A stretch of 9,208 nt of DNA from positions 1-9,208 of IMG/VR virus record IMGVR_UViG_2526164634_000013. The stretch is one strand, 5' to 3'. Positions 1 through 9,208 of the stretch are shown one piece after another. Position numbers and translations under genes: made by a program. Positions within the stretch are counted from its first letter, which is position 1. Each line of letters begins with the position of its first letter. The notes below the pieces were generated by a model. That model did no database searches. It saw only the letters and a list, made by a program, of their open reading frames with translations, and was not told the origin of the DNA. Source of the DNA: a virus. Its lineage: Duplodnaviria > Heunggongvirae > Uroviricota > Caudoviricetes.

Positions 1-1
1 C

Positions 2-172
2 ACCATTGGCGATAAAAGCATTTACCTGTATGACCTGCGCCGCATGGATGAAATCATGGAGGCTCTTGATAATCGTTCGTCGATGGATTGGTGTGTTGCT
101 GTCCATGATATGAATGCCGGATTTGATGAAAGGATTTTGTTCCCCTCATCAGTTGAAAGCACTGCGGGTTAA
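2..172 (+). CDS. 3' end of an upstream gene (partial, function unknown)
   Basis: Reading frame 2 is open from the window edge to TAA at 170-172 (…SVESTAG*). No start codon in window and no recognisable motif. The stop overlaps the AAGGAG Shine-Dalgarno of the next gene. Confidence 0.3.
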   Translation, partial: TIGDKSIYLYDLRRMDEIMEALDNRSSMDWCVAVHDMNAGFDERILFPSSVESTAG

Positions 173-182
173 GGAGTAACAC

Positions 183-1412
183 ATGACCACTATTACCAAA
201 GAACGTATTGAATTGTTCATTAAAAATCCGCTTGAAAACGGGCTTACCCGTGGTGAACAAATGGAACTGGCACGGATTGCGCTGGCATCGCTGGAAGCAG
301 ATCCAGTTAAACGAGTTAACTCAGATCAGATGCGCCGAGTCTGCTTAGAAGCTAATCGCCATTTAGATAAATATGACGCGATGGCGAAAGAGGTAAATAA
401 GTTGCTTGGACGCATCGCCCCGCCAGCGCCGGTAGTGCCGGAAGAAGCAACTCCGGAAAACGTAGAAATGCTCTCTGGCTATGTTTCCACGTACAAATTA
501 ACCGATAGCGAGCGCGATATTGCTACCGAAATATGGAACGCCTGCCGCGCCGCCATGCTTCAGTCCGGAAACTTTCGGGAAAACAAGAATTCGTCAACCA
601 ATAATTTTCGGGAAATCGCGGAAACGTCAACCAACTATCCGGCAATTCCTAGTGAGGTGTTGTCCGCAATCCTGAAGGTTGCCAGGATTCGTGCCGATTT
701 CGATGATTTTGACGGTGACAGGCGAGGTATCGGTGATTGTCTGGATGAGGCTGAGCAAGAGCTTATCGTTACCATTAACAAATATGCCAGTCAGTTGGCA
801 GCAGAACCGATAGCGACTAATGACGTTCGAGAGCAGCAGACAGCCGTTCCGCCAGTTCCGGAAATACAGGATGATGTCGCGCAAGCAATTGAAAATCTCA
901 AGCAGAAGTTAGTGGAATGCAATCGCTATAACTACTGCGCAGATGCAGTTAAAGGCGTAGAGGATGCCTGCCACGCTGCCATGCTTCAGGGTAGCCAACC
1001 TGTAAGCCAAACTTACAAGTTGCCAGTTAATACACCTTGCCAAGATGCGCCAGCCCATATCTGGCTGCAAACGGCTGGAGTATGGCCAGAAGATGGCGAG
1101 TTAAGCGAATTAACGTGGTGCAGCCACAATCAGCACCATGATGACACGCTATATGTTCGAGCTGACCTTGTGAATGGCAACTCTCCGGTAACTCCGGATG
1201 GTTGGATAAGCTGTAGTGAGCGAATGCCGGATACCAAAACAGCCGTTCTTGTTGCCAGGGAGTTTGACAGGAAAGGTGACTGGCGAATGAAATGGGCGAC
1301 TTACATCCCGGGTCATCCTGACGCTAATGATGGGTGGATAATACCTGGTGCGTCGTGGATACCATCACACTGGATGCCTCTACCAGAACCGCCGCAGGAG
1401 GTGCGCCAATGA
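183..1412 (+). CDS. Prophage protein with C-terminal DUF551-like domain; N-terminal ~300 aa of unknown function
   Basis: 409-aa ORF with ATG at 183 preceded by AAGGAG (171-176). The C-terminus (…WISCSERMPD…WIIPGASWIPSHWMPLPEPPQ) matches, from memory, the W-rich DUF551 signature ending in HWMPLPEPP seen in enterobacterial prophage proteins. No database search was run. Confidence 0.75.
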   Translation: MTTITKERIELFIKNPLENGLTRGEQMELARIALASLEADPVKRVNSDQMRRVCLEANRHLDKYDAMAKEVNKLLGRIAPPAPVVPEEATPENVEMLSGYVSTYKLTDSERDIATEIWNACRAAMLQSGNFRENKNSSTNNFREIAETSTNYPAIPSEVLSAILKVARIRADFDDFDGDRRGIGDCLDEAEQELIVTINKYASQLAAEPIATNDVREQQTAVPPVPEIQDDVAQAIENLKQKLVECNRYNYCADAVKGVEDACHAAMLQGSQPVSQTYKLPVNTPCQDAPAHIWLQTAGVWPEDGELSELTWCSHNQHHDDTLYVRADLVNGNSPVTPDGWISCSERMPDTKTAVLVAREFDRKGDWRMKWATYIPGHPDANDGWIIPGASWIPSHWMPLPEPPQEVRQ

Positions 1413-1492
1413 ACTGGCCTGAAGCATTTGCAATTACAGGCGTTGCTATGGCTATAGCTTTTTTAGTATATGTTATTTGTCGGTGGGGGTAA
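1409..1492 (+). CDS. Micro-ORF, 27-aa hydrophobic peptide (MNWPEAFAITGVAMAIAFLVYVICRWG), putative single-pass membrane peptide
   Basis: ATG at 1409 overlaps the TGA of the upstream gene (ATGA coupling). AGGAGG at 1396-1401 sits 7 nt upstream. A hydrophobic stretch of about 20 residues is followed by RW. Too short for the supplied ORF track; translated by hand. Confidence 0.4.
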   Translation: MNWPEAFAITGVAMAIAFLVYVICRWG

Positions 1493-1527
1493 AAACGTTC
1501 GCCGGGATTAACACCAAAGGAGGGAAT

Positions 1528-1632
1528 ATGTCGGATGATATATCACTGGCAATGGAAGGTGCGCTGGCTGTTGTTGCTGTTGTGGGCGTTTACTGCCTGG
1601 TTGTGTTTTTGATGGATCGACTAGGGAACTGA
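1528..1632 (+). CDS. Micro-ORF, 34-aa hydrophobic peptide (MSDDISLAMEGALAVVAVVGVYCLVVFLMDRLGN), putative single-pass membrane peptide
   Basis: ATG at 1528 with AAGGAGGG at 1517-1524. Acidic N-terminus followed by a ~20-residue hydrophobic helix. Not in the ORF track; translated by hand. Confidence 0.45.
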   Translation: MSDDISLAMEGALAVVAVVGVYCLVVFLMDRLGN

Positions 1633-1640
1633 ATTCATTA

Positions 1641-1662
1641 CGATATGGGAATTCCCATATCG
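1641..1662. repeat. Perfect 22-bp palindrome CGATATGGGAATTCCCATATCG
   Basis: The sequence equals its own reverse complement and contains a central GAATTC. It lies 9 nt after the stop of the 34-aa micro-ORF and about 35 bp upstream of the predicted hok promoter. No U-tract follows, so it is not a classical intrinsic terminator. Confidence 0.6.
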
Positions 1663-1673
1663 GGTAAAAACGG

Positions 1674-1702
1674 TTTGCGGTAAAGCGAGAGTTAAGTAGA
1701 AT
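1674..1702 (+). promoter_or_regulatory. Candidate sigma70 promoter of the hok transcript (-35 TTTGCG/TTGCGG, -10 TAGAAT at 1697-1702)
   Basis: TAGAAT matches the -10 consensus at 5 of 6 positions, with a 16-17 bp spacer to a weak TTG-containing -35. The predicted +1 near 1707-1709 coincides with the 5' arm of the long-range complementarity to the mRNA 3' end. Confidence 0.4.
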
Positions 1703-1878
1703 TGCAGCGGGTGCTTGAGGCTATCTGTCTCAGGCATGAACACCAAAAGGCAGATAGAGAAAAGCCCCAGTTAACATTATGCGTCCTGCAAGACGCTTAA
1801 CATTAATCTGAGGCCCAATCTATGTCTCACAAATGTAGGTTAGCCTCTTACGTGCCGAAAGGCAAGGAGAAGCAGGCT

Positions 1879-2034
1879 ATGAAGCAGCAAAAGGCGATGT
1901 TAATCGCCCTGATCGTCATCTGTTTAACCGTCATAGTGACGGCACTGGTAACGAGGAAAGACCTCTGCGAGGTACGAATCCGAACCGGCCAGACGGAGGT
2001 CGCTGTCTTCACAGCTTACGAACCTGAGGAGTAA
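1879..2034 (+). CDS. hokD: Hok/Gef-family type I toxin (51 aa, small membrane-depolarising peptide)
   Basis: The product MKQQKAMLIALIVICLTVIVTALVTRKDLCEVRIRTGQTEVAVFTAYEPEE has the Hok/Gef hallmark: N-terminal TM helix and conserved TRKDLCEV…R…G…EVA.F.AYE. From memory it matches E. coli HokD/RelF very closely. The family call is secure; the exact paralog name is by recall only. An in-frame upstream ATG at 1822 with GAGG SD gives the 70-aa track ORF. Confidence 0.85.
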   Translation: MKQQKAMLIALIVICLTVIVTALVTRKDLCEVRIRTGQTEVAVFTAYEPEE

Positions 2035-2082
2035 GAGACCAGGCGGGGGAGAATCCCTCGCCACCTCTGATGTGTCAGGCAT

Positions 2083-2097
2083 CCTCAACGCACCCGC
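2083..2097 (+). promoter_or_regulatory. 3' fold-back element of hok mRNA (fbi-like), complementary to the predicted 5' end at 1707-1720
   Basis: 1707-1720 (GCGGGTGCTTGAGG) pairs antiparallel with 2083-2097 (CCTCAACGCACCCGC): 8 bp plus 6 bp with one bulged C. This is the architecture described for hok mRNAs, where the 3' end pairs with the 5' translational activator region. Confidence 0.5.
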
Positions 2098-2103
2098 ACT
2101 TAA

Positions 2104-2128
2104 CCCGCTTCGGCGGGTTTTGTTTTTT
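2104..2128 (+). terminator. Rho-independent terminator ending the hok transcript
   Basis: Hairpin CCGC-TTCG-GCGG (2105-2116) followed by GTTTTGTTTTTT. Confidence 0.75.
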
Positions 2129-2200
2129 CCTGGCATTCTGGTTTACAATTCGCACACCAGCCTGAACAACTGGCACCTGCTGCGCCAGCAGAGACAACCG

Positions 2201-2479
2201 ATGGCGCACGATACCAAATTACACAATTCTGATGATTCTGCCGTCTTTGCCAGCAGGCACGGGCGGCGTTCCCGCACTTTCAAATCTGACTGGTTCCAGC
2301 ATCCCCCATGCACTGAAGAACAGGCCGAGTGGCTAATTCAGTGCTACCGCAGACACGGATACGAGATTAAGAAAGCCCTCAGCCTCGATTATCGTCACTG
2401 GATAATCTCCGTCAGGCTTCCTTACTCCGAACGCCCACCGCGTCCGTCCCGCACATTCCAGCAACGCATCTGGAGGTAA
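2201..2479 (+). CDS. Small basic hypothetical protein (92 aa); Rem-like by position only
   Basis: ORF with ATG at 2201 chosen because the track start at 2072 would overlap the hok terminator. The SD is weak (GAGA). The TAA stop at 2477-2479 sits 1 nt before the GTG start of the next gene. Sits where rem sits between hokD and ydfU in the Qin prophage, as I recall that order. Confidence 0.45.
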   Translation: MAHDTKLHNSDDSAVFASRHGRRSRTFKSDWFQHPPCTEEQAEWLIQCYRRHGYEIKKALSLDYRHWIISVRLPYSERPPRPSRTFQQRIWR

Positions 2480-2480
2480 C

Positions 2481-3527
2481 GTGCGGGTATTACTTCGACC
2501 TGTTCTGGTACCGGAACTCGGGCTGGTGATCGTTAAGCCGGGCCGTGAATCCATGCCGGTATTCCACAATACCCGGGTACTGGTGGAGCCGGAACCGAAA
2601 AGCATGCGTAATCTGTCGTCCGGGGTCGTTCCTGCCGTTCGCCAGCCGCTGGCGGAGGATAAATCATTACTGCCATTTTTCAGCGACGAACGAGTGATTC
2701 GTGCTGCTGGTGGCGCTGGCGCATTGTCTGACTGGTTACTGCGCCATGTTAAATCCTGCCAGTGGCCACACGGCGATTATCACCACAGTGAAACCGTCAT
2801 TCACCGTTATGGTACCGGCGCAATGGTGTTGTGCTGGCACTGCGACAACCAGCTGCGCGACCAGACCTCCGAATCACTCGGGCAACTTGCTCACCAAAAC
2901 CTGTCTGCATGGATGATTGACGTCATACGCCATGCAATGAATGGCTCGCAGGAACGGGAATTATCGCTGGCTGAATTATCCTGGTGGGCGGTCCGCAATC
3001 AGGTGGCGGACGCGCTACCGGAAGCGGTATTACGTCGTTCGCTGGGGTTGCGTGCGGAAAAAATCCGCTCAATGTACCGTGAAAGCGACATCGTACCGGG
3101 AGAGCAGACCGCCACCAGCATACTGAAGCAGCGCACAAAAAATCTTGCGCCGCTGCCTCACGCCCACCAGCAAAACCCGCCACAGGAAGAGACGGTGGTC
3201 AGCATTGCCGTTGATCCTGAGTCTCCGGAATCTTTCATGAAACGACCTAAACGTCGCCGCTGGGTTAACGAGAAATACACACGCTGGGTGAAGACACAGC
3301 CGTGTGCGTGTTGTGGTAAGCCAGCCGACGATCCCCATCACCTGATTGGTCATGGTCAGGGCGGAATGGGGACAAAATCTCACGATATTTTCACGCTACC
3401 GCTGTGTCGGGAGCATCACAACGAGCTTCATGCGGATCCTCTGGCGTTCGAAGAAAAGTATGCTTCTCAGGTTGATTTAATTTTTCGTTTTCTTGATCAC
3501 GCCTTTGCAACTGGCGTGCTTGGGTAA
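2481..3527 (+). CDS. ydfU: DUF968 (YdfU-like) prophage protein with C-terminal Cys/His HNH-like motif
   Basis: 348-aa ORF with GTG start at 2481 and GGAGG at 2472-2476. The C-terminal segment CACCGKPADDPHHLIGHGQGG…LPLCREHHNELH resembles a zinc-binding HNH-type module. The length matches the roughly 349-aa YdfU of Qin as I recall it; the family call is by recall. Confidence 0.75.
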   Translation: MRVLLRPVLVPELGLVIVKPGRESMPVFHNTRVLVEPEPKSMRNLSSGVVPAVRQPLAEDKSLLPFFSDERVIRAAGGAGALSDWLLRHVKSCQWPHGDYHHSETVIHRYGTGAMVLCWHCDNQLRDQTSESLGQLAHQNLSAWMIDVIRHAMNGSQERELSLAELSWWAVRNQVADALPEAVLRRSLGLRAEKIRSMYRESDIVPGEQTATSILKQRTKNLAPLPHAHQQNPPQEETVVSIAVDPESPESFMKRPKRRRWVNEKYTRWVKTQPCACCGKPADDPHHLIGHGQGGMGTKSHDIFTLPLCREHHNELHADPLAFEEKYASQVDLIFRFLDHAFATGVLG

Positions 3528-3539
3528 AAGAGGTGACTG

Positions 3540-3899
3540 ATGCTCATAGATTTGGTTTTACCTTACCCGCCGACGGTGAACACTTACTGGCGACGCCGTG
3601 GCAGCACATATTTTATCTCGGAGGAGGGAAAGCGTTATCGCCGTGATGTGGCGCTTATTGTTCGCCAGCAGCAACTGAAATTAAACCTGTCCGGAAGGCC
3701 GGCAATAGAAATTATTGCAGAGCCACCGGATAAGCGCCGTCGTGACCTGGACAATATCCTGAAGGCACCACTGGATGTACTGACGCATGCGGGGCTGCTC
3801 ATAGACGACGAGCAGTTTGATGAAATTAATATTGTGCGCGGTCAGCTTGTTCCTGGTGGGCGGTTGGGGATAAAAATCACAGAACTGGAGTATGCATGA
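3540..3899 (+). CDS. rusA: RusA-family Holliday junction resolvase
   Basis: 119-aa product with PPxxNxYWRRRG…RRRDLDN…DDxQ…GGRL, matching the RusA catalytic acidic-residue pattern. SD AGAGG upstream. The stop overlaps the next start (ATGA at 3896-3899). Confidence 0.88.
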   Translation: MLIDLVLPYPPTVNTYWRRRGSTYFISEEGKRYRRDVALIVRQQQLKLNLSGRPAIEIIAEPPDKRRRDLDNILKAPLDVLTHAGLLIDDEQFDEINIVRGQLVPGGRLGIKITELEYA

Positions 3900-4585
3900 A
3901 TAACCAGTATTTACAGTTTGTTCGTGAGCAACTCATGATTGCCACCGCCGATTTGAGTGGATCAACAAAAGGGCAGCTTGAGGCCTGGCAGGAGAATGCC
4001 ATGTTTGATACAGGGCGTTACAGGCGTAAAAAAATCCGGTACCGCGATGAAGTGACTGGAAAAATGATAACGCGGGATAATCCACCAATCCCGGGAAAGC
4101 AATCGCTGGCGAAGGGGGCGTCAATTCCTCTCGTCAGTCCGGTTGAGTTTTTGACATCATCGTGGCGGCGGGCTGTTCTGTCTCTTGAAGAACATCATAA
4201 AGCCTGGTTGTTGTGGTGTTACAGCGGGAGTATTTGTTGGGAATATCAGATCGCGATAACGCAGTGGGTGTGGAATGAATTTAAAACCCGGTACGGCACC
4301 AGAAAAATTGCAGGGAAAACGCAGGAGCGCGCGAAGAAGTTGATCTGGCTGGCGGCACAGGATGTCAGAGGATGGATTACCGGGTGTGAGGTCTACCAGA
4401 GACAGGAGCTTGCCAGACTGTGTGGAGTTAAGCCTGATAACTGGAGCCATAATTATGCGAACTACTGGCGTGAGATGTGCGATATTTTTAAGAGTCTCGA
4501 TAGAGAATCTGTGATTTGCACCGTGAAAATAAGAGCGCAACAAAAAGCGACTTTTTCACGACGAGATATTGCAAAAGTCAATTAA
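3896..4585 (+). CDS. Putative late-gene antiterminator Q (long Q-like family, QuuQ/YdfT-type)
   Basis: 229-aa ORF translationally coupled to rusA, with GGAG 5 nt upstream. It is the last gene before a promoter-like AT-rich stretch and a strong terminator, which is the canonical Q position in lambdoid phages. The family is inferred mainly from synteny; I cannot confirm by motif. Confidence 0.55.
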   Translation: MNNQYLQFVREQLMIATADLSGSTKGQLEAWQENAMFDTGRYRRKKIRYRDEVTGKMITRDNPPIPGKQSLAKGASIPLVSPVEFLTSSWRRAVLSLEEHHKAWLLWCYSGSICWEYQIAITQWVWNEFKTRYGTRKIAGKTQERAKKLIWLAAQDVRGWITGCEVYQRQELARLCGVKPDNWSHNYANYWREMCDIFKSLDRESVICTVKIRAQQKATFSRRDIAKVN

Positions 4586-4644
4586 ATAGCGTACGTTTCG
4601 TATAAATCTGATATTTTGCCGATTTTGTACGCGATGGCAAAGTA

Positions 4645-4675
4645 AGAAAAAAACTGCCGTCAGGCGGTTTTTTTT
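4645..4675 (+). terminator. Strong intrinsic terminator downstream of Q (tR'-like), flanked by A-run and T-run
   Basis: AGAAAAAAA, then stem CTGCC-GTCA-GGCGG (one G-U pair), then TTTTTTTT (4668-4675). It is about 60 nt downstream of a TATAAAT box (4601-4607). Confidence 0.7.
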
Positions 4676-4797
4676 ATGCCCAAAATCGCGTCAGTACAGT
4701 AAACACGCTGGTGGTTGCGAATACGGGTCTTTCAGCTTGCTGGCTTTTTCGACAAGAGTTATTGGTATGTCACGTTAACCGGAAAAAGGAAAAAGAC

Positions 4798-4995
4798 ATG
4801 CTAAAACAGCAGGATATGACAGAAACCGCCAGAGTGGTGTTTAATGAATTAAGCGTTACCGAACCGGCGACAGTCGGGGAGATAGCGCAGAATACTTACC
4901 TTTCACGCGAACGCTGCCAGTTAATACTGACTCAGCTGGTTATGGCGGGTCTGGCAGACTATCAGTTCGGTTGTTACAGACGCCTTCCGCAGTGA
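4798..4995 (+). CDS. Small helix-turn-helix DNA-binding protein (65 aa)
   Basis: ATG at 4798 with AGGA 8-11 nt upstream. The segment ATVGEIAQNTYLSRERCQLILTQLVMAGLA has an HTH-like pattern. The track start at 4711 is an in-frame extension lacking an SD. Confidence 0.55.
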   Translation: MLKQQDMTETARVVFNELSVTEPATVGEIAQNTYLSRERCQLILTQLVMAGLADYQFGCYRRLPQ

Positions 4996-5006
4996 AGGCT
5001 TTTTTA
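4982..5006 (+). terminator. Intrinsic terminator overlapping the stop codon of the HTH gene
   Basis: Stem GCCTTC (4982-4987) / GAAGGC (4994-4999) with loop CGCAGT, followed by TTTTTTATTT. Confidence 0.6.
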
Positions 5007-5023
5007 TTTGTGGTAAATGGGCG

Positions 5024-5052
5024 GCTGGTGGGTGTTAGGGGCACCCACCAGC
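5024..5052 (+). repeat. Perfect 11-bp-stem hairpin (GCTGGTGGGTG / CACCCACCAGC, 7-nt loop) in the methyltransferase leader
   Basis: Exact inverted repeat with no following U-tract. A second 7-bp-stem hairpin lies at 5095-5113 (CTGCTTT-GCGCA-AAAGCAG). Confidence 0.6.
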
Positions 5053-5145
5053 CATCTGCTCATGCGTTGGGTTCACAAGCAAACCTCAGGCCCACTGCTT
5101 TGCGCAAAAGCAGAATGAGCCTATCAGAGACAGGCTTAATGATCC

Positions 5146-6195
5146 ATGCTTAATACTGTAAAAATATCCAGTTGTGAGTTAATCAACGCCGACTGCCTGG
5201 AATTTATCCGGTCGTTACCCGAAAATTCTGTTGACCTGATAGTCACGGACCCGCCGTACTTTAAAGTGAAGCCTGAGGGCTGGGATAACCAGTGGAAGGG
5301 CGACGATGATTACCTGAAATGGCTGGACCAGTGTCTGGCGCAGTTCTGGCGGGTGCTGAAACCTGCCGGAAGTCTTTACCTGTTCTGTGGTCATCGCCTG
5401 GCATCTGATATCGAAATCATGATGCGTGAACGCTTCAGTGTGCTGAACCATATTATCTGGGCGAAGCCGTCCGGACGCTGGAACGGGTGCAACAAGGAAA
5501 GCCTGCGGGCGTATTTCCCCGCCACAGAGCGCATTCTGTTCGCGGAACATTATCAGGGGCCGTATCGCCCGAAAGATGCCGGGTATGAGGCGAAGGGCAG
5601 GGCACTGAAACAGCATGTGATGGCCCCGCTGATTTCTTACTTTCGTGATGCGCGCGCTGCCCTGGGGATAACGGCAAAACAGATAGTGGATGCCACAGGA
5701 AAGAAAAACATGGTGTCACACTGGTTCAGTGCCAGTCAGTGGCAGCTACCGAACGAAAGCGATTATCTGAAATTACAGTCGCTGTTTGCCCGGGTGGCAG
5801 AAGAGAAACATCAGCGGGGAGAACTGGAAAAGTCCCATTACCAACTGGTCAGCACATACAGTGAGCTGAACCGGCAGTATACGGAACTGCAGAGTGAATA
5901 TAAGCATCTGCGGCGGTATTTTGGCGTGACGGCGCAGGTGCCGTACACGGATGTGTGGACGCATAAACCGGTGCAGTACTATCCAGGGAAACATCCGTGC
6001 GAAAAACCGGCAGAAATGCTGCAGCAGATAATCAGCGCAAGTAGTCGTCCTGGTGATCTGGTTGCGGATTTTTTCATGGGGTCGGGTTCAACGGTAAAAG
6101 CGGCGATGGCACTGGGGCGTCGTGCGATTGGCGTTGAACTGGAGACCGGACGTTTTGAGCAGACAGTCAGGGAAGTTCAGGATTTAATCGTTTGA
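5146..6195 (+). CDS. Orphan DNA methyltransferase, beta class (N6-adenine/N4-cytosine family, PF01555-like)
   Basis: 349-aa product with catalytic DPPY (residues 35-38) preceding the AdoMet-binding motif HPCEKP…GDLVADFFMGSGST (residues 283-316). That motif order defines the beta class, and DPPY rather than SPPY favours N6-adenine. No obvious SD before the ATG. No restriction endonuclease ORF in the window. Confidence 0.88.
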   Translation: MLNTVKISSCELINADCLEFIRSLPENSVDLIVTDPPYFKVKPEGWDNQWKGDDDYLKWLDQCLAQFWRVLKPAGSLYLFCGHRLASDIEIMMRERFSVLNHIIWAKPSGRWNGCNKESLRAYFPATERILFAEHYQGPYRPKDAGYEAKGRALKQHVMAPLISYFRDARAALGITAKQIVDATGKKNMVSHWFSASQWQLPNESDYLKLQSLFARVAEEKHQRGELEKSHYQLVSTYSELNRQYTELQSEYKHLRRYFGVTAQVPYTDVWTHKPVQYYPGKHPCEKPAEMLQQIISASSRPGDLVADFFMGSGSTVKAAMALGRRAIGVELETGRFEQTVREVQDLIV

Positions 6196-6244
6196 AACGG
6201 ATGAGATTGCAGAATTAATTACGCACCATTATTATTCTGCTCCC

Positions 6245-6320
6245 GGCCCTTTAGCTCAGTGGTGAGAGCGAGCGACTCATAATCGCCAGGTCGCTGGTTC
6301 AAATCCAGCAAGGGCCACCA
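6245..6320 (+). tRNA. ileZ: tRNA-Ile2 (anticodon CAU, lysidine type), ileZ-like
   Basis: Hand-folded cloverleaf: acceptor GGCCCTT/AAGGGCC, D-stem GCTC/GAGC, anticodon loop CTCATAA, T-loop TTCAAAT, encoded CCA. Closely resembles E. coli tRNA-Ile2 as recalled. Confidence 0.8.
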
Positions 6321-6327
6321 TCACATA

Positions 6328-6404
6328 CCGCCATTAGCTCATCAGGAAAGAGCGCCAGCCTTCGAAGCTGGCTGCGCGGAGTTCGGGTCCCCGAAGGCGG
6401 TCCA
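6328..6404 (+). tRNA. argN: tRNA-Arg (anticodon UCG as read from sequence), argN-like; atypical stems
   Basis: Perfect anticodon stem CCAGC/GCTGG with loop CTTCGAA, D-stem GCTC/GAGC, encoded CCA. However there is one A-A mismatch in the acceptor stem, one A-C mismatch in the T-stem, and the T-loop is TTCGGGT (G at position 58). Confidence 0.55.
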
Positions 6405-6417
6405 TTATCTGTATCCT

Positions 6418-6494
6418 GCGTTGTTAGCTCAGCCGGACAGAGCAATTGCCTTCTAAGTAATCGGTCACTGGTTCGAATCCAGTACAACGCGCCA
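6418..6494 (+). tRNA. argO: tRNA-Arg (anticodon UCU), argO-like
   Basis: Acceptor GCGTTGT/ACAACGC, D-stem GCTC/GAGC, anticodon stem ATTGC/GTAAT with loop CTTCTAA, T-arm ACTGG-TTCGAAT-CCAGT, encoded CCA. Confidence 0.82.
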
Positions 6495-6508
6495 CACTTA
6501 TTTTCCCT

Positions 6509-6533
6509 GGCTCGCTTTTGCGGGCCTTTTTTT
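6509..6533 (+). terminator. Intrinsic terminator immediately after the tRNA cluster
   Basis: Stem GGCTCGC / GCGGGCC (one U-G pair) with loop TTTT, followed by TTTTTTT. Confidence 0.7.
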
Positions 6534-6730
6534 AAATGTCTCACAATTCAGACGGTTGACAGTTGTCTGTTTTGCGGGGAGTTTGTTAAAAGAAACTGGC
6601 ATGGTGAATCCCCCTGTGCGGAGGGGCAATCAGCGAGTAGGTATATGGGATAATCGCGGATTCAGGTGCTGGTACTGAATTCACCGGGAGGCACCCGGCA
6701 CCATGCAATGGCACATAGCGCCACTCTCCA

Positions 6731-6755
6731 GCCCCTCTCCGGAGGGGCTTTCTTA
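6731..6755 (+). terminator. GC-rich hairpin with T-rich tail (terminator-like) in the tRNA-to-esterase interval
   Basis: Stem GCCCCTC / GAGGGGC with loop TCCG, followed by TTTCTTA. Shares the core CGGAGGGGC with a second hairpin at 6611-6626. Confidence 0.4.
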
Positions 6756-6760
6756 TGGAC

Positions 6761-6788
6761 AAAAAAATCCCGCGCTGGGAGACGCGGG
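6761..6788 (-). terminator. Minus-strand intrinsic terminator-like element (hairpin CCCGCG/CGCGGG followed on the minus strand by U7)
   Basis: On the + strand this reads AAAAAAAT, then CCCGCG, an 8-nt loop, then CGCGGG. On the minus strand that is hairpin plus T-run. It sits back-to-back with the + strand hairpin at 6731-6755. Confidence 0.35.
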
Positions 6789-6982
6789 CGGCAAGGAATA
6801 AACATCAAAACGTGAAGTAATATTTCAGCTGGCGAATAATATCCGACAGTAATCACTCTGCGCAATAGCGCGGCCTTTTTCGTATTGCGGACTGTTGTCT
6901 CTCTTCTGCCATTGTCCTGTAACTTCCGGACTTCAGCCCGCTCCTCATTTTACTCACAATATTATCCCGGCCGGGAGGATTC

Positions 6983-8836
6983 ATGGCATTTAAACACTAT
7001 GATGTTGTCAGGGCGGCGTCGCCGTCAGACCTTGCGGAAAAGCTGACACATAAACTGAAAGAGGGCTGGCAGCCGTTTGGTAGTCCGGTGGCCATAACCC
7101 CTTATACCCTGATGCAGGCGATTGCAGCAGAAGGTGATGTGGTCGTCAGTGGTGCAACTGAGCCGGAGTGGTACTACGTCATCGTACTGGCCGGGCAGTC
7201 CAATGCCATGGCTTACGGTGAAGGGCTTCCGCTTCCGGATTCATACGATGCGCCGGATCCGCGCATTAAACAGCTGGCGCGCCGCAGTACAGTGACGCCG
7301 GGTGGGGCTGCCTGCAGATATAACGATATTATTCCGGCCGACCACTGCCTGCATGATGTGCAGGATATGAGTACGCTGAATCATCCGAAGGCAGACCTGA
7401 GCAAAGGGCAGTACGGCTGTGTCGGCCAGGGCTTACATATTGCCAAAAAACTGCTTCCGTATATCCCGAATAACGCGGGGATCCTGCTGGTACCATGCTG
7501 TCGTGGTGGTTCGGCATTCACCCAGGGCGCGGAGGGGACATTCAGTGCGGACACGGGGGCCAGCCAGGATTCGGCACGCTGGGGTGTGGGTAAACCGTTA
7601 TATCAGGACCTGATTGCGCGCACTAAAGCTGCATTACAGAAGAACCCGAAAAATGTGTTGCTGGCGGTGTGCTGGATGCAGGGAGAGTTTGACATGAGCG
7701 CCGCCACCTACGCACAGCAACCTGCGCTGTTTACAGCCATGCTGAAGCAGTTTCGTGCTGACCTCACTGTGTTTAACGCGCAGTGTCATGGTGGCAGTGC
7801 TGCAGATGTGCCGTGGATTTGTGGTGACACGACGTATTACTGGAAAAATACATACGCTACCCAGTACGACACCGTGTACGGCGGGTATAAAAACAGGGAG
7901 AGTGAGGGCGTTTATTTTGTGCCCTTCATGACAGACGGTAACGGCGTCAATACCGCCACTAACGCACCGGCAGAAGATCCGGATATTCCGGCATCAGGAT
8001 ATTACGGTGCGGCATCGAGAACGAATGGAAACCAGGTATCATCAAACCGCCCGACACATTTCAGTTCATGGGCGCGCAGGAGCATTATTCCGGATCGTAT
8101 GGCAACCGCTATTCTGAACGCAGCCGGGCGCACCTCAGCCTTCATCAGTGGTAAGGCACCGGAAATCAAACCCTCGCCCGGCGTCGACACGCCATCGGGG
8201 CCGTCTGAAGATGCATCCGTACGCACAATCTCCCTGTTGCCGACAGCCGGAGAGGCTGCTGCGCAGGGCTGGACCATTAAGGACGGCGGAATTCAGTTGT
8301 CGGGTGGTGTATTTAAGATCGCCAAGCAGAGCAATAAAGCCTGGTCCCTGACGCGCCCGGTGGGTGACGCAGTCTCCCTGCTGACACGGGGTGGCAGACT
8401 GAGCTGTAAGTTTCGACTGTCAGGCGCACTGACCAACAACCAGTTCGGTCTGGGAATTTATCTGTATACCGATGTAGCGTTACCTGACGTCGTGGCGATG
8501 ACCGGGACTGGTAACCCGTTCCTGATGTCGTTCTTCACCCAGACCACAGACGGCAAACTGAATCTGATGCATCACAAGAAAGCAGGAAACACAAAGTTGG
8601 GCGAGTTCGGGAATTACAGTAACGACTGGCAGACGCTGGAGCTGGTGTTCACCGCCGGCCAGTGCCACGGTTACTCCGAAACTGAATGGAGTGGCTGGCC
8701 CGGCATTCCAGGTCATAAAGACAGTCTGACAGTGGGACTAAATGCACTGACGCTGACGGATATTACCAAAAATGCAACGTATGGCGTTGAGATAGAAAGT
8801 CTGGTGCTGGAGATAAATGCACCGGCATCATCATAA
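6983..8836 (+). CDS. nanS-p: Prophage sialate O-acetylesterase NanS-p-like (SGNH/SASA hydrolase with N-terminal DUF1737-like region)
   Basis: 617-aa product. The motif [16 protein letters not shown] carries the GQSN catalytic-serine signature of SASA-type esterases (NanS/YjhS family). The N-terminal [21 protein letters not shown]… resembles the short domain that heads prophage NanS-p proteins. GGGAGG SD at 6973-6978. Confidence 0.8.
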
Positions 8837-8921
8837 AAAGTGAGCCAGTCAAGTGGAAGGTATCGTTAAACTCACCGGTAGTGTCAGTGGGTCGTCTGAG
8901 ACGCCTGCATGAGTTATCAGA

Positions 8922-8950
8922 GCCATCAGTACTTAACTGGTGGCTTTTTT
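8922..8950 (+). terminator. Intrinsic terminator between the esterase gene and the holin gene
   Basis: Stem GCCATCAG / CTGGTGGC (one G-U pair) with 7-nt loop TACTTAA, followed by TTTTTTATT. Confidence 0.6.
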
Positions 8951-8985
8951 ATTGTTGTCAGCTTCCGGATAACGGGAGACGGGGT

Positions 8986-9201
8986 ATGTACCAGATGGAA
9001 AAAATCACAACAGGTGTGTCATACACCACGTCAGCGGTGGGAACGGGCTACTGGTTCCTGCAGTTGCTGGACAGGGTTTCCCCGTCTCAGTGGGCGGCAA
9101 TAGGCGTGCTGGGGAGTCTGCTGTTTGGGCTGCTGACATATCTGACTAACCTGTATTTCAAAATCAGAGAGGACCGTCGTAAGGCGGCGCGGGGAGAGTA
9201 A
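8986..9201 (+). CDS. S: S21-like pinholin (class II holin) with dual-start motif
   Basis: 71-aa product [71 protein letters not shown]. From memory it is near-identical over the C-terminal two thirds to the phage 21 holin (…[15 protein letters not shown]…[22 protein letters not shown]). Two TM segments and Met1/Met4 dual starts. The track ORF from 8881 is an unsupported N-terminal extension. A new ATG at 9206 starts the next gene. Confidence 0.85.
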
Positions 9202-9208
9202 AGCGATG

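Follow-up and report, generated by a model that had tools for sequence, protein, structure and literature searches.

A covarying leader RNA, downstream of a small winged-helix gene, as the probable late-lytic gate of an M.EcoGII-type methyltransferase in lambdoid prophages

M.EcoGII-type enzymes methylate every accessible adenine, and they are widely used as chromatin-footprinting reagents; how does a prophage keep such an enzyme off, and how does it turn it on? In the literature searched, we found no description of that control. Here, we put the question to one stretch of DNA, the 9,208 nucleotides (nt) at positions 1 to 9,208 of the IMG/VR virus record IMGVR_UViG_2526164634_000013 (“the window”), which is the late-regulatory region of an Escherichia coli lambdoid prophage without stx, the Shiga toxin genes. 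Its central element is a leader RNA of about 140 nt that abuts an M.EcoGII-family methyltransferase gene and that, by comparison of related sequences, is a conserved structure supported by covariation, apparently undescribed and a candidate for a new RNA family in a heavily studied organism. The best explanation, and one that we consider probable, is that the window holds the front end of a late operon, in which antitermination and a leader that pairs with the start region together hold back a toxic enzyme until the late lytic phase. Of 5426 complete E. coli genomes, 2382 carry the module, 1878 of these at a coverage of 80% or more, and it can be said to occur in about a third of all the genomes. 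In Stx2 phages, it lies directly between the antiterminator gene Q and stx, and each toxin transcript therefore has to cross it.

The steps would be these. A transcript from the probable late promoter, just after Q, would end at a strong terminator (4647-4676) unless Q has modified RNA polymerase. Next along the path would come a gene for a winged-helix protein of 65 amino acids (aa) and a second terminator at 4982-5009, and then the leader of about 140 nt and the methyltransferase gene. In the leader’s OFF fold, AUGGGC:GCUCAU would extend a hairpin that we call P1, and GGUCA/AAGC would pair with GCUU/UGAUC just before an AUG without a Shine-Dalgarno (SD) sequence, thereby blocking ribosome loading; in its ON fold, helix Px, UGGGC:GCCCA and GUGAGC:GCUUAC, all incompatible with OFF, would leave the start region open. 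Candidates for the factor that shifts OFF to ON would be the winged-helix protein (acting like Com of phage Mu), the ribosome, or a ligand. In other words, we infer translation control by the leader, Q read-through as the source of the transcript, and a factor-driven shift from OFF to ON. A leader with two folds coupled with a dedicated small protein makes for a concrete, testable mechanism, and the leader may, in addition, affect transcription or translation downstream towards stx.

The leader itself, at about 5008-5154 on the + strand, is hit by its covariance model with 128 bits, and the stretch 4970-5160 folds better than its shuffles (z -3.9, 0/200). RNAalifold gives it a long hairpin, P1, with an extension, P1ext, plus a second domain, P2, in which GGUCA.AAGC pairs with GCUU..UGAUC before the AUG and encloses a further hairpin, P3. 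P1ext and P1 together occupy 5017-5063 (+): AUGGGC at 5017-5022 pairs with GCUCAU at 5058-5063, and the P1 arms lie at 5023-5034 and 5042-5053 (-28 kcal/mol, z -5.9, 0/200 shuffles). The 5' strand of P2 is at 5071-5080 (+), with GGUCA at 5071-5075 and AAGC at 5077-5080, and its partners are at 5134-5137 and 5140-5144. P3 covers 5089-5121 (+), where an outer helix (GGCCCA at 5089-5094 with UGAGCC at 5116-5121) surrounds an inner one (5095-5101 with 5107-5113; -8.4 kcal/mol, z -2.4, 4/200 shuffles). The features named in the initial annotation, which was made from the sequence alone, are all present, at or within 1 nt of the positions that it gave. Its perfect hairpin at 5024-5052 is real but has 12-bp arms rather than an 11-bp stem; its 7-bp hairpin has perfect arms, those of inner P3; and a fourth hairpin, at 5118-5136, had escaped it. 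What has not survived is the treatment of these hairpins as independent elements, since they are helices P1 and inner P3 of one leader. Neither 5023-5053 nor 5095-5113 is followed by a U-run, and they are not terminators. The spacer that holds all of this is 142-154 nt long in 22 of 23 genome loci from several genera; its sequence is highly conserved, and across Enterobacterales, the leader is more conserved than the proteins that flank it.

The best argument against chance comes from comparison: across genera, the spacer is conserved and covaries. Among 55 diverse leaders, with slid partners and shuffles as controls, 87.8% of cells are paired in the OFF fold against 32-46% with slid partners, and both sides have changed in 17 pairs. 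The fold scores 0.203 for covariation, the slid controls score 0.04-0.11, and 0/500 shuffles reached the value of the fold, although the sequences are related, so that the shuffle controls overstate the significance, a point to be counted against our explanation. P1 is the clearest helix: 9 of its 12 pairs show double-sided changes, and in some lineages the arms are entirely different yet fully paired. P1ext is 98% paired, with 57 G-U cells; P2 is paired in 90.5% of cells, with 61 G-U cells and 3 pairs changed on both sides; and in P3, 5 pairs change on both sides. The covariance model, built from this alignment, finds one hit per locus, on the + strand, ending at the methyltransferase start. 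A pattern scan of metagenomes, whose raw matches were about half random, left 44 leaders confirmed by the model, and in 44/44, a methyltransferase follows from its residue 1. A scan of viral contigs with an E. coli-first alignment returned near-identical E. coli loci only and added no diversity. Searching the whole window against Rfam (cmscan, E values up to 1) gave nothing on the + strand of the leader and, on the minus strand, only a chance-level match to P26 (24 bits, E 0.14); the literature searches turned up no description of the leader either. We also considered a conserved leader peptide with attenuation, read from the invariant AUG of AUGGGC (with UGG-UGG in E. coli), and rejected it: the open reading frame (ORF) runs for anything from 3 to 58 codons, has no SD, and encodes no conserved peptide.

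Might the big hairpin instead be a feature of the DNA? Its arms carry an inverted pair of Chi sites, at 5024-5031 (+) and 5045-5052 (-), and with those at 2706, 3112, 3164, and 4707, the window has six against 0.34 expected from shuffles. One could, therefore, take P1 for a recombination hotspot or mosaic joint, and the other hairpins for ordinary terminators, with no dedicated leader at all. E. coli prophages that lack the methyltransferase do diverge in or just beyond P1—the match to PhiR5_1 and to several E. coli genomes ends at window position 5035, directly after the left-arm Chi, and that to phiSTEC1575-Stx2k at about 5069—and in Enterobacteriaceae, the 5' arm, which bears the Chi, does not vary, whereas its 3' partner does. 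We nevertheless hold this reading to be very improbable. Lineages of the Providencia type and others have no Chi in the arms and still pair fully, which makes pairing the main constraint; U-runs are missing from hairpins 3 and 4; and the whole 140 nt covaries as one structure, in every case directly adjoining the start of the methyltransferase gene. Rather than being an alternative to the leader, Chi is probably a further feature of one P1 arm at the level of the DNA. The Chi site at 4707-4714 (+; GCTGGTGG) recurs in PhiR5_1, phiSTEC1575-Stx2k, and three other genome loci, but most of the aligned loci that are more distant have a changed sequence there. Two remnants may be mentioned beside these. 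In PhiR5_1 (L002, about 4470-4690), an element matching the small RNA STnc100 lies directly 3' of the truncated P1 arm, and another locus (L021, 3169-3308) keeps a 5'-truncated winged-helix gene and a near-complete leader (98 bits), its methyltransferase gene having been deleted.

We come next to the start that the leader would occlude. The methyltransferase gene (5146-6195, +) has a translation initiation region at 5134-5148 (+) made up of GCUU (5134-5137), UGAUC (5140-5144, containing GATC), and the AUG (5146-5148); the minimum free energy (MFE) fold of the window base-pairs 5134-5149, and the motif CTGATCTATG is conserved. The initial annotation had remarked that this ATG lacks a recognisable SD, and both the ATG and the lack of an SD turn out to be conserved; all that can be found is an AGG at 5132-5134, 11 nt upstream and base-paired. 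It had also allowed that translation might start at another codon led by an SD, but homologues align from residue 1 of the ATG at 5146 in 23/23 genome loci. With the start region paired in a fold that covariation supports, gating by RNA structure, which it had suggested among other options, becomes probable. Just inside the gene is a further hairpin (5155-5172, +), ACUG/CAGU, of 4 bp in the window and up to 8 bp elsewhere, found in most loci as AAUACUGU-N8-ACAGUGUU; it explains why synonymous sites are frozen in methyltransferase codons 2-9.

Several smaller observations belong to this region. A mini-ORF of four codons (AUG AUC CAU GCU UAA; 5139-5153), preceded at 4 nt by an AGG, spans the methyltransferase AUG in a different frame, and in the distant relatives L161, L164, and L170, the homologous AUGAUC follows a real SD and is the start of the methyltransferase itself. 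The GATC (Dam) site at 5141-5144, 2 nt before the start codon, is found in 50 of 55 aligned leaders; it is also part of the 3' strand of P2 (UGAUC), which may explain its conservation. Finally, the sequence CUGU(G/A)AAAAU is directly repeated, once where the leader begins (5011-5021) and once in methyltransferase codons 4-7 (5156-5166), more clearly so in L006-L027, and could be a repeated binding site or chance.

The second fold is built on Px (5055-5083, +), in which 5055-5063, just 3' of P1 (AUUCGCUCA), pairs with 5075-5083 (CAAGCGAAC), a helix mutually exclusive with P1ext and P2. Five of its nine pairs change on both sides (U-A/C-G at one position, for example, and C-G/U-A/A-U/U-G at another), and some lineages have the full 9-bp helix. 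With Px formed, UGGGC at 5018-5022 can pair with GCCCA at 5090-5094 (Alt1, paired in all 55 sequences, with one double change), followed by GUGAGC:GCUUAC. P3 contains an invariant C-A mismatch, which the second fold explains, because both bases are paired there, in Alt1 and in P4alt. Columns 92-95 of the alignment covary with two sets of partners, those in Px and those in P2, and in nearly all sequences, the MFE structure is one or the other of the two folds (in the window, OFF at -61.0 and ON at -52.9 kcal/mol). Taken together, this looks like the signature of a two-state leader, in which the stable state would occlude the SD-less start and the other state would free it. A stronger version, in which the leader is an RNA switch of a new class, licensing methyltransferase translation only late in the lytic cycle and flipped either by the winged-helix protein as an RNA-binding activator or by a small ligand such as S-adenosylmethionine or S-adenosylhomocysteine, we offer tentatively and regard as unlikely. 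M.EcoGII also methylates RNA, so feedback through N6-methyladenosine in the enzyme’s own leader is conceivable. Translational riboswitches share with this leader a conserved multi-helix design in a 5' leader, two exclusive pairings of which one occludes the start, and conserved unpaired junction nucleotides; the leader differs from them in having no Rfam riboswitch match, in its place in the middle of a phage operon, in its start without an SD, and in having no known ligand.

Not everything pulls in the direction of the gate that we favour, and the points that weigh against it deserve to be listed in one place. Translation control, termination at 4676 and at 5009, and the assignment of the late promoter pR' are read out of the sequence by inference. 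In the window, the ON fold falls short of the OFF fold by 8 kcal/mol in stability. The support for Alt1 and P1ext consists mostly of invariant positions or one-sided changes. Px has two A-C mismatches in Enterobacteriaceae, and overall, it has 113 A-C against 5 G-U cells; it may rarely form on the + strand, or it may belong to an antisense RNA. The leader is found without the winged-helix gene in 14 of 80 loci, and the gene is also found next to spacers of quite another kind; the RNA therefore does not depend on the protein as a partner, and we favour a separable, two-layer control over a single obligate RNA–protein pair. A link between the OFF/ON energy balance and the presence of the winged-helix gene was also tried and dropped, as it was not robust once 5' ends were equalised.

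The antisense idea can be stated fully: an RNA from the minus strand, covering the leader and the start codon, would keep the toxic gene repressed in lysogens, much as type I toxin–antitoxin systems or RNA-OUT do, and Px would be part of that RNA. Every A-C cell in Px would be a G-U wobble on the minus strand; the fold of the window’s minus strand reaches -62.6 kcal/mol (z -5.7) and contains a three-way junction and a Px of 11 bp; and at 5136-5118, the same strand has a hairpin resembling a terminator. However, A-C mismatches are also what one would expect from selection for a weaker ON helix on the + strand, and the G-U pairs in P1ext and P2 fit an RNA of the + strand only. Nor did we find a conserved minus-strand promoter. 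The sole candidate, a -10 element TACAGT (the complement of ACTGTA) in the first methyltransferase codons, was rejected: its first base is variable, and the rest is held constant by the coding sequence and by the sense-strand hairpin, the same hairpin that accounts for the frozen synonymous sites there. All told, we judge an antisense repressor improbable and return to the + strand leader as a start-occluding element.

What would such an element protect the cell from? The methyltransferase (N6_N4 DNA methylase, PF01555, 153.9 bits) has 349 aa in the beta-class order of motifs, with DPPY at residues 35-38 and FMGSG at 310-314, and is 96% identical to the enzyme of phage 1720a-02, which Murray et al. 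(PMC5778455) name as very similar to M.EcoGII. By its sequence, and by way of the 1720a-02 enzyme rather than by comparison with M.EcoGII itself, we assign it to the M.EcoGII family of beta-class N6-adenine DNA methyltransferases. M.EcoGII is described as a non-specific adenine methyltransferase of 349 aa, silent in the lysogen and harmful when expressed (PMC5778455, PMC12707154). By analogy, the window enzyme would methylate adenine without sequence specificity and be toxic, and a toxic enzyme that is silent in lysogens is expected to be under tight control. Murray et al. (2018), whose M.EcoGII and M.EcoGI resemble our enzyme in family, length, and prophage type and are reported to be silent in lysogens and deleterious on expression, characterised the enzyme alone; the part of the paper at hand describes no upstream gene, leader RNA, or control mechanism.

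The closest analogue that we can offer is com-mom of phage Mu, from which the idea that the leader sequesters the start of a toxic phage gene would be carried over. In com-mom and in Com-Hin1523/Hia5, a toxic DNA-modification gene of broad specificity is gated by a small regulator, which opens a stem that occludes the start (PMC3299994), and in FluMu and related prophages, the modification enzyme is itself a non-specific adenine methyltransferase (PMC3299994; PMC12707154). The two systems share a small gene directly upstream of a toxic, broad-specificity DNA-modification gene that is silent in lysogens, an RNA stem over the start of the modification gene (here in silico only), and late lytic expression (here proposed). 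They also differ. Com is a zinc finger with four cysteines, whereas the small protein here is a winged helix with two and no homologue of Com; a single stem there corresponds to a multi-helix leader of about 140 nt with two alternative folds here; the enzymes are Mom or the Dam-like Hin1523 there and a beta-class, M.EcoGII-type methyltransferase here; and Mu relies on activation by its C protein and on Dam/OxyR regulation, as opposed to a Q-antiterminated lambdoid late operon. For our small protein, activation is a candidate role only.

That small protein is encoded at 4798-4995 (+; ATG at 4798, TGA at 4995), with an AAGGA SD 7 nt upstream. Its AlphaFold model has three helices and a beta-hairpin wing (mean pLDDT, the model’s confidence score, 91), its structural neighbours are generic winged helices only (IclR, MarR, and others), and its one Pfam match is to TrmB at 18 bits, below the cutoff of 25.6. 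It falls in phrog_331, a family without an assigned function; NCBIfam and PADLOC searches gave no family, and a sequence search of the PDB gave nothing useful. We collected 334 homologues from Escherichia, Salmonella, Klebsiella, Citrobacter, Buttiauxella, Mixta, and others, and among 1.8 billion proteins, the family forms 84 clusters, all stand-alone. From its sequence, the protein is near-neutral to acidic, and its two cysteines are C40 and C59. Its association with the methyltransferase, which the initial annotation had pointed out, is real: the small gene lies upstream in 23 of 24 species-level genomes and in 66 of the 80 loci retrieved through the methyltransferase alone. The linkage persists at 35-48% identity and across spacers of about 150, 100, and 70 nt that differ in architecture; in low-GC viral contigs (L139-L147), the spacer of about 70 nt consists of a Chi-containing terminator hairpin and then an SD, AAGGA, with no structured leader. 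The protein may be a regulator that acts on the leader (a Com-like activator or a repressor), or it may be a partner of the enzyme.

The second of these roles is the core of a rival account, in which the winged-helix protein is a subunit or partner of the methyltransferase that tunes its substrate choice or activity and the leader RNA is an independent matter. Linkage across three unrelated spacers (a leader of about 150 nt, a short leader of about 100 nt, and a terminator plus SD of about 70 nt) fits a protein–protein relation better than recognition of one RNA, and the protein’s near-neutral to acidic character is in its favour as well. There is even a precedent: PNB-2 of the Stx phage phiPA8, the product of a small winged-helix gene immediately upstream of a prophage methyltransferase gene (M.EcoPA8orf6770P; Gong et al. 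2023), again with a terminator before the pair, is co-transcribed with the methyltransferase gene, co-purifies 1:1 with its MT-A70 methyltransferase, and, as a stoichiometric subunit, directs methylation to 16S rRNA (PMC10810198). But that methyltransferase belongs to a different family (MT-A70, with a DPPW motif) and lies elsewhere in its phage genome with no structured leader reported, and the likeness is one of gene arrangement and fold, not one of sequence comparison. Moreover, M.EcoGII is active as a single polypeptide (PMC5778455), no fusion of the two proteins occurs among the 84 family clusters, and in E. coli, prophages that have lost the methyltransferase still have the small gene. 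For these reasons, we treat an enzyme partner as possible and rather unlikely, and we go on with the leader as the probable site of control.

The initial annotation had seen in this gene pair a resemblance to the controller (C) proteins of restriction–modification systems. On a reading of that kind, the small protein would switch methyltransferase transcription on or off, and the inverted repeats of the spacer would be its operators on DNA. Here, indeed, is a small protein with a DNA-binding type of fold encoded directly upstream of the methyltransferase—a likeness to C proteins that extends to a presumed role in timing—and here are inverted repeats in the spacer, among them a near-palindrome, GCTTTAGCGCTAAAGC, present in many genera, and a recognition-helix segment, CQLILTQLVMAGL, that is nearly invariant. 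The resemblance does not go deeper. C proteins are of the XRE type, bind C-boxes that precede the gene encoding them, and govern a restriction enzyme, and none of the three was found: the protein is a winged helix with no HTH_3 match in a Pfam scan, no C-box was identified, and a restriction enzyme, which the initial annotation had rightly reported as missing, is found neither among the ORFs of the window nor beside the pair in related loci. Furthermore, the P1 arms change wholesale while the recognition helix stays as it is, and the two show no co-variation; tolerance of G-U pairs and partners of columns 92-95 that covary over 60 nt fit RNA and not operators; and the leader persists without the protein. 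Control by DNA operators is, in our estimate, quite improbable.

The remaining layer of the favoured mechanism is antitermination. The small gene’s stop codon sits in the loop of a hairpin, P0, that with its U-run forms an intrinsic terminator at 4982-5009 (+; stem 4982-4987/4994-4999, then TTTTTTATTT; -8.9 kcal/mol, z -2.65, 2/200 shuffles as stable), which confirms the terminator first placed there. In Enterobacteriaceae, P0 with the stop codon in its loop is retained by compensatory changes; its U-run is of variable quality, and the Providencia group lacks the hairpin. Farther upstream is Q (3896-4585, +), an antiterminator gene of the phage-82-type family (PF06323, 277.8 bits) with relatives in Gifsy-1 and other lambdoid phages, although a PDB sequence search with it gave nothing useful. 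Overlapping its end is a candidate pR' (4569-4614, +), with a -35 element TTGCAA at 4569-4574, a -10 element TACGTT 17 nt later at 4592-4597, and TGATAT at 4609-4614, a -10-like sequence that is possibly a sigma-dependent pause element. Three loci of the same Q type have TTGCAA, a -10-like hexamer, and an invariant TGATAT in common, and the sequence between these blocks differs. Then comes a strong intrinsic terminator at 4647-4676 (+; arms 4647-4658/4663-4674; -18.4 kcal/mol, z -5.6), the probable tR'. Every related locus has a terminator at this position, with a stem that differs by Q type, and in phages of other Q types, homology to the window starts at the T-run of this very hairpin.

The layout is the one to be expected for pR', a promoter-proximal pause element, and tR', and the candidate promoter lies where lambdoid pR' does; in Stx phages, pR'-tR' is constitutively active and terminated in lysogens (PMC7547250). 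If the assignment is correct, then the small gene and the methyltransferase gene are downstream of tR' and inside the Q-dependent late operon. Gating by antitermination, another suggestion of the initial annotation, is thus very probable, for the genes lie beyond Q and the terminator that goes with it, and the small gene has a further terminator behind it; taken as a whole, that earlier interpretation is partly supported. As in pR'-tR' units of the lambda 6S RNA or StxS type, a promoter-like block and a strong terminator come immediately after a Q gene, and as in lambdoid Q antitermination generally, the late genes, this module included, lie downstream and would depend on read-through. The difference is an extra, gene-specific layer, a second terminator plus a translational leader, that serves a single gene. 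Transcription from the candidate pR' to tR' (4569-4676) would yield a terminated transcript about 70 nt long, a counterpart of lambda 6S RNA or StxS. A sub-threshold Rfam match to STnc370 (minus strand, 4641-4716; 46.7 bits against a gathering score of 54) covers the probable tR' and the nearby Chi and may mark a region homologous to Gifsy-type prophages of Salmonella. Between tR' and the small gene, a block kept across genera (4736-4775, +; CTTGCTG...GAGTTATnnGTATGTCAC) is possibly a weak promoter or an element of the 5' untranslated region; it matches the sigma-70 consensus poorly and has no clear palindrome.

Seen as a whole, the window runs from Q through the probable pR'/tR', the winged-helix gene, its terminator, the leader, and the methyltransferase gene to tRNAs, an esterase, and a holin. 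Judged from these elements, it appears to combine what a lambdoid Q-dependent late operon comprises, namely Q, promoter-like blocks, a terminator, and lysis genes downstream on the same strand. Pfam places a DUF968 protein (PF06147) at 2481-3527, RusA at 3540-3899, a SASA-family sialate acetylesterase with DUF1737 and DUF6645 at 6983-8836, and a P21-type holin (PF04971) at 8986-9201; together with Q, these identify the region as lambdoid and late. Of the three tRNAs at 6245-6494, the one at 6245-6320 has a CAT anticodon and is called Met by ARAGORN; its counterpart in phiP27 is annotated ileZ (tRNA-Ile), and it may be an Ile tRNA with lysidine modification. Between the tRNA cluster and the esterase gene, in the slot that stx occupies in Stx phages, Rfam finds a full-length match to the small RNA STnc100 (6570-6760, 139 bits), with terminators after it. 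Far upstream, an Rfam sok match (1709-1884, 121 bits) marks a type I toxin–antitoxin locus of the hok/sok type, and it overlaps an ORF at 1822-2034 whose C-terminal 51 aa are Hok-like (MKQQKAMLIALIVICLTVIV...).

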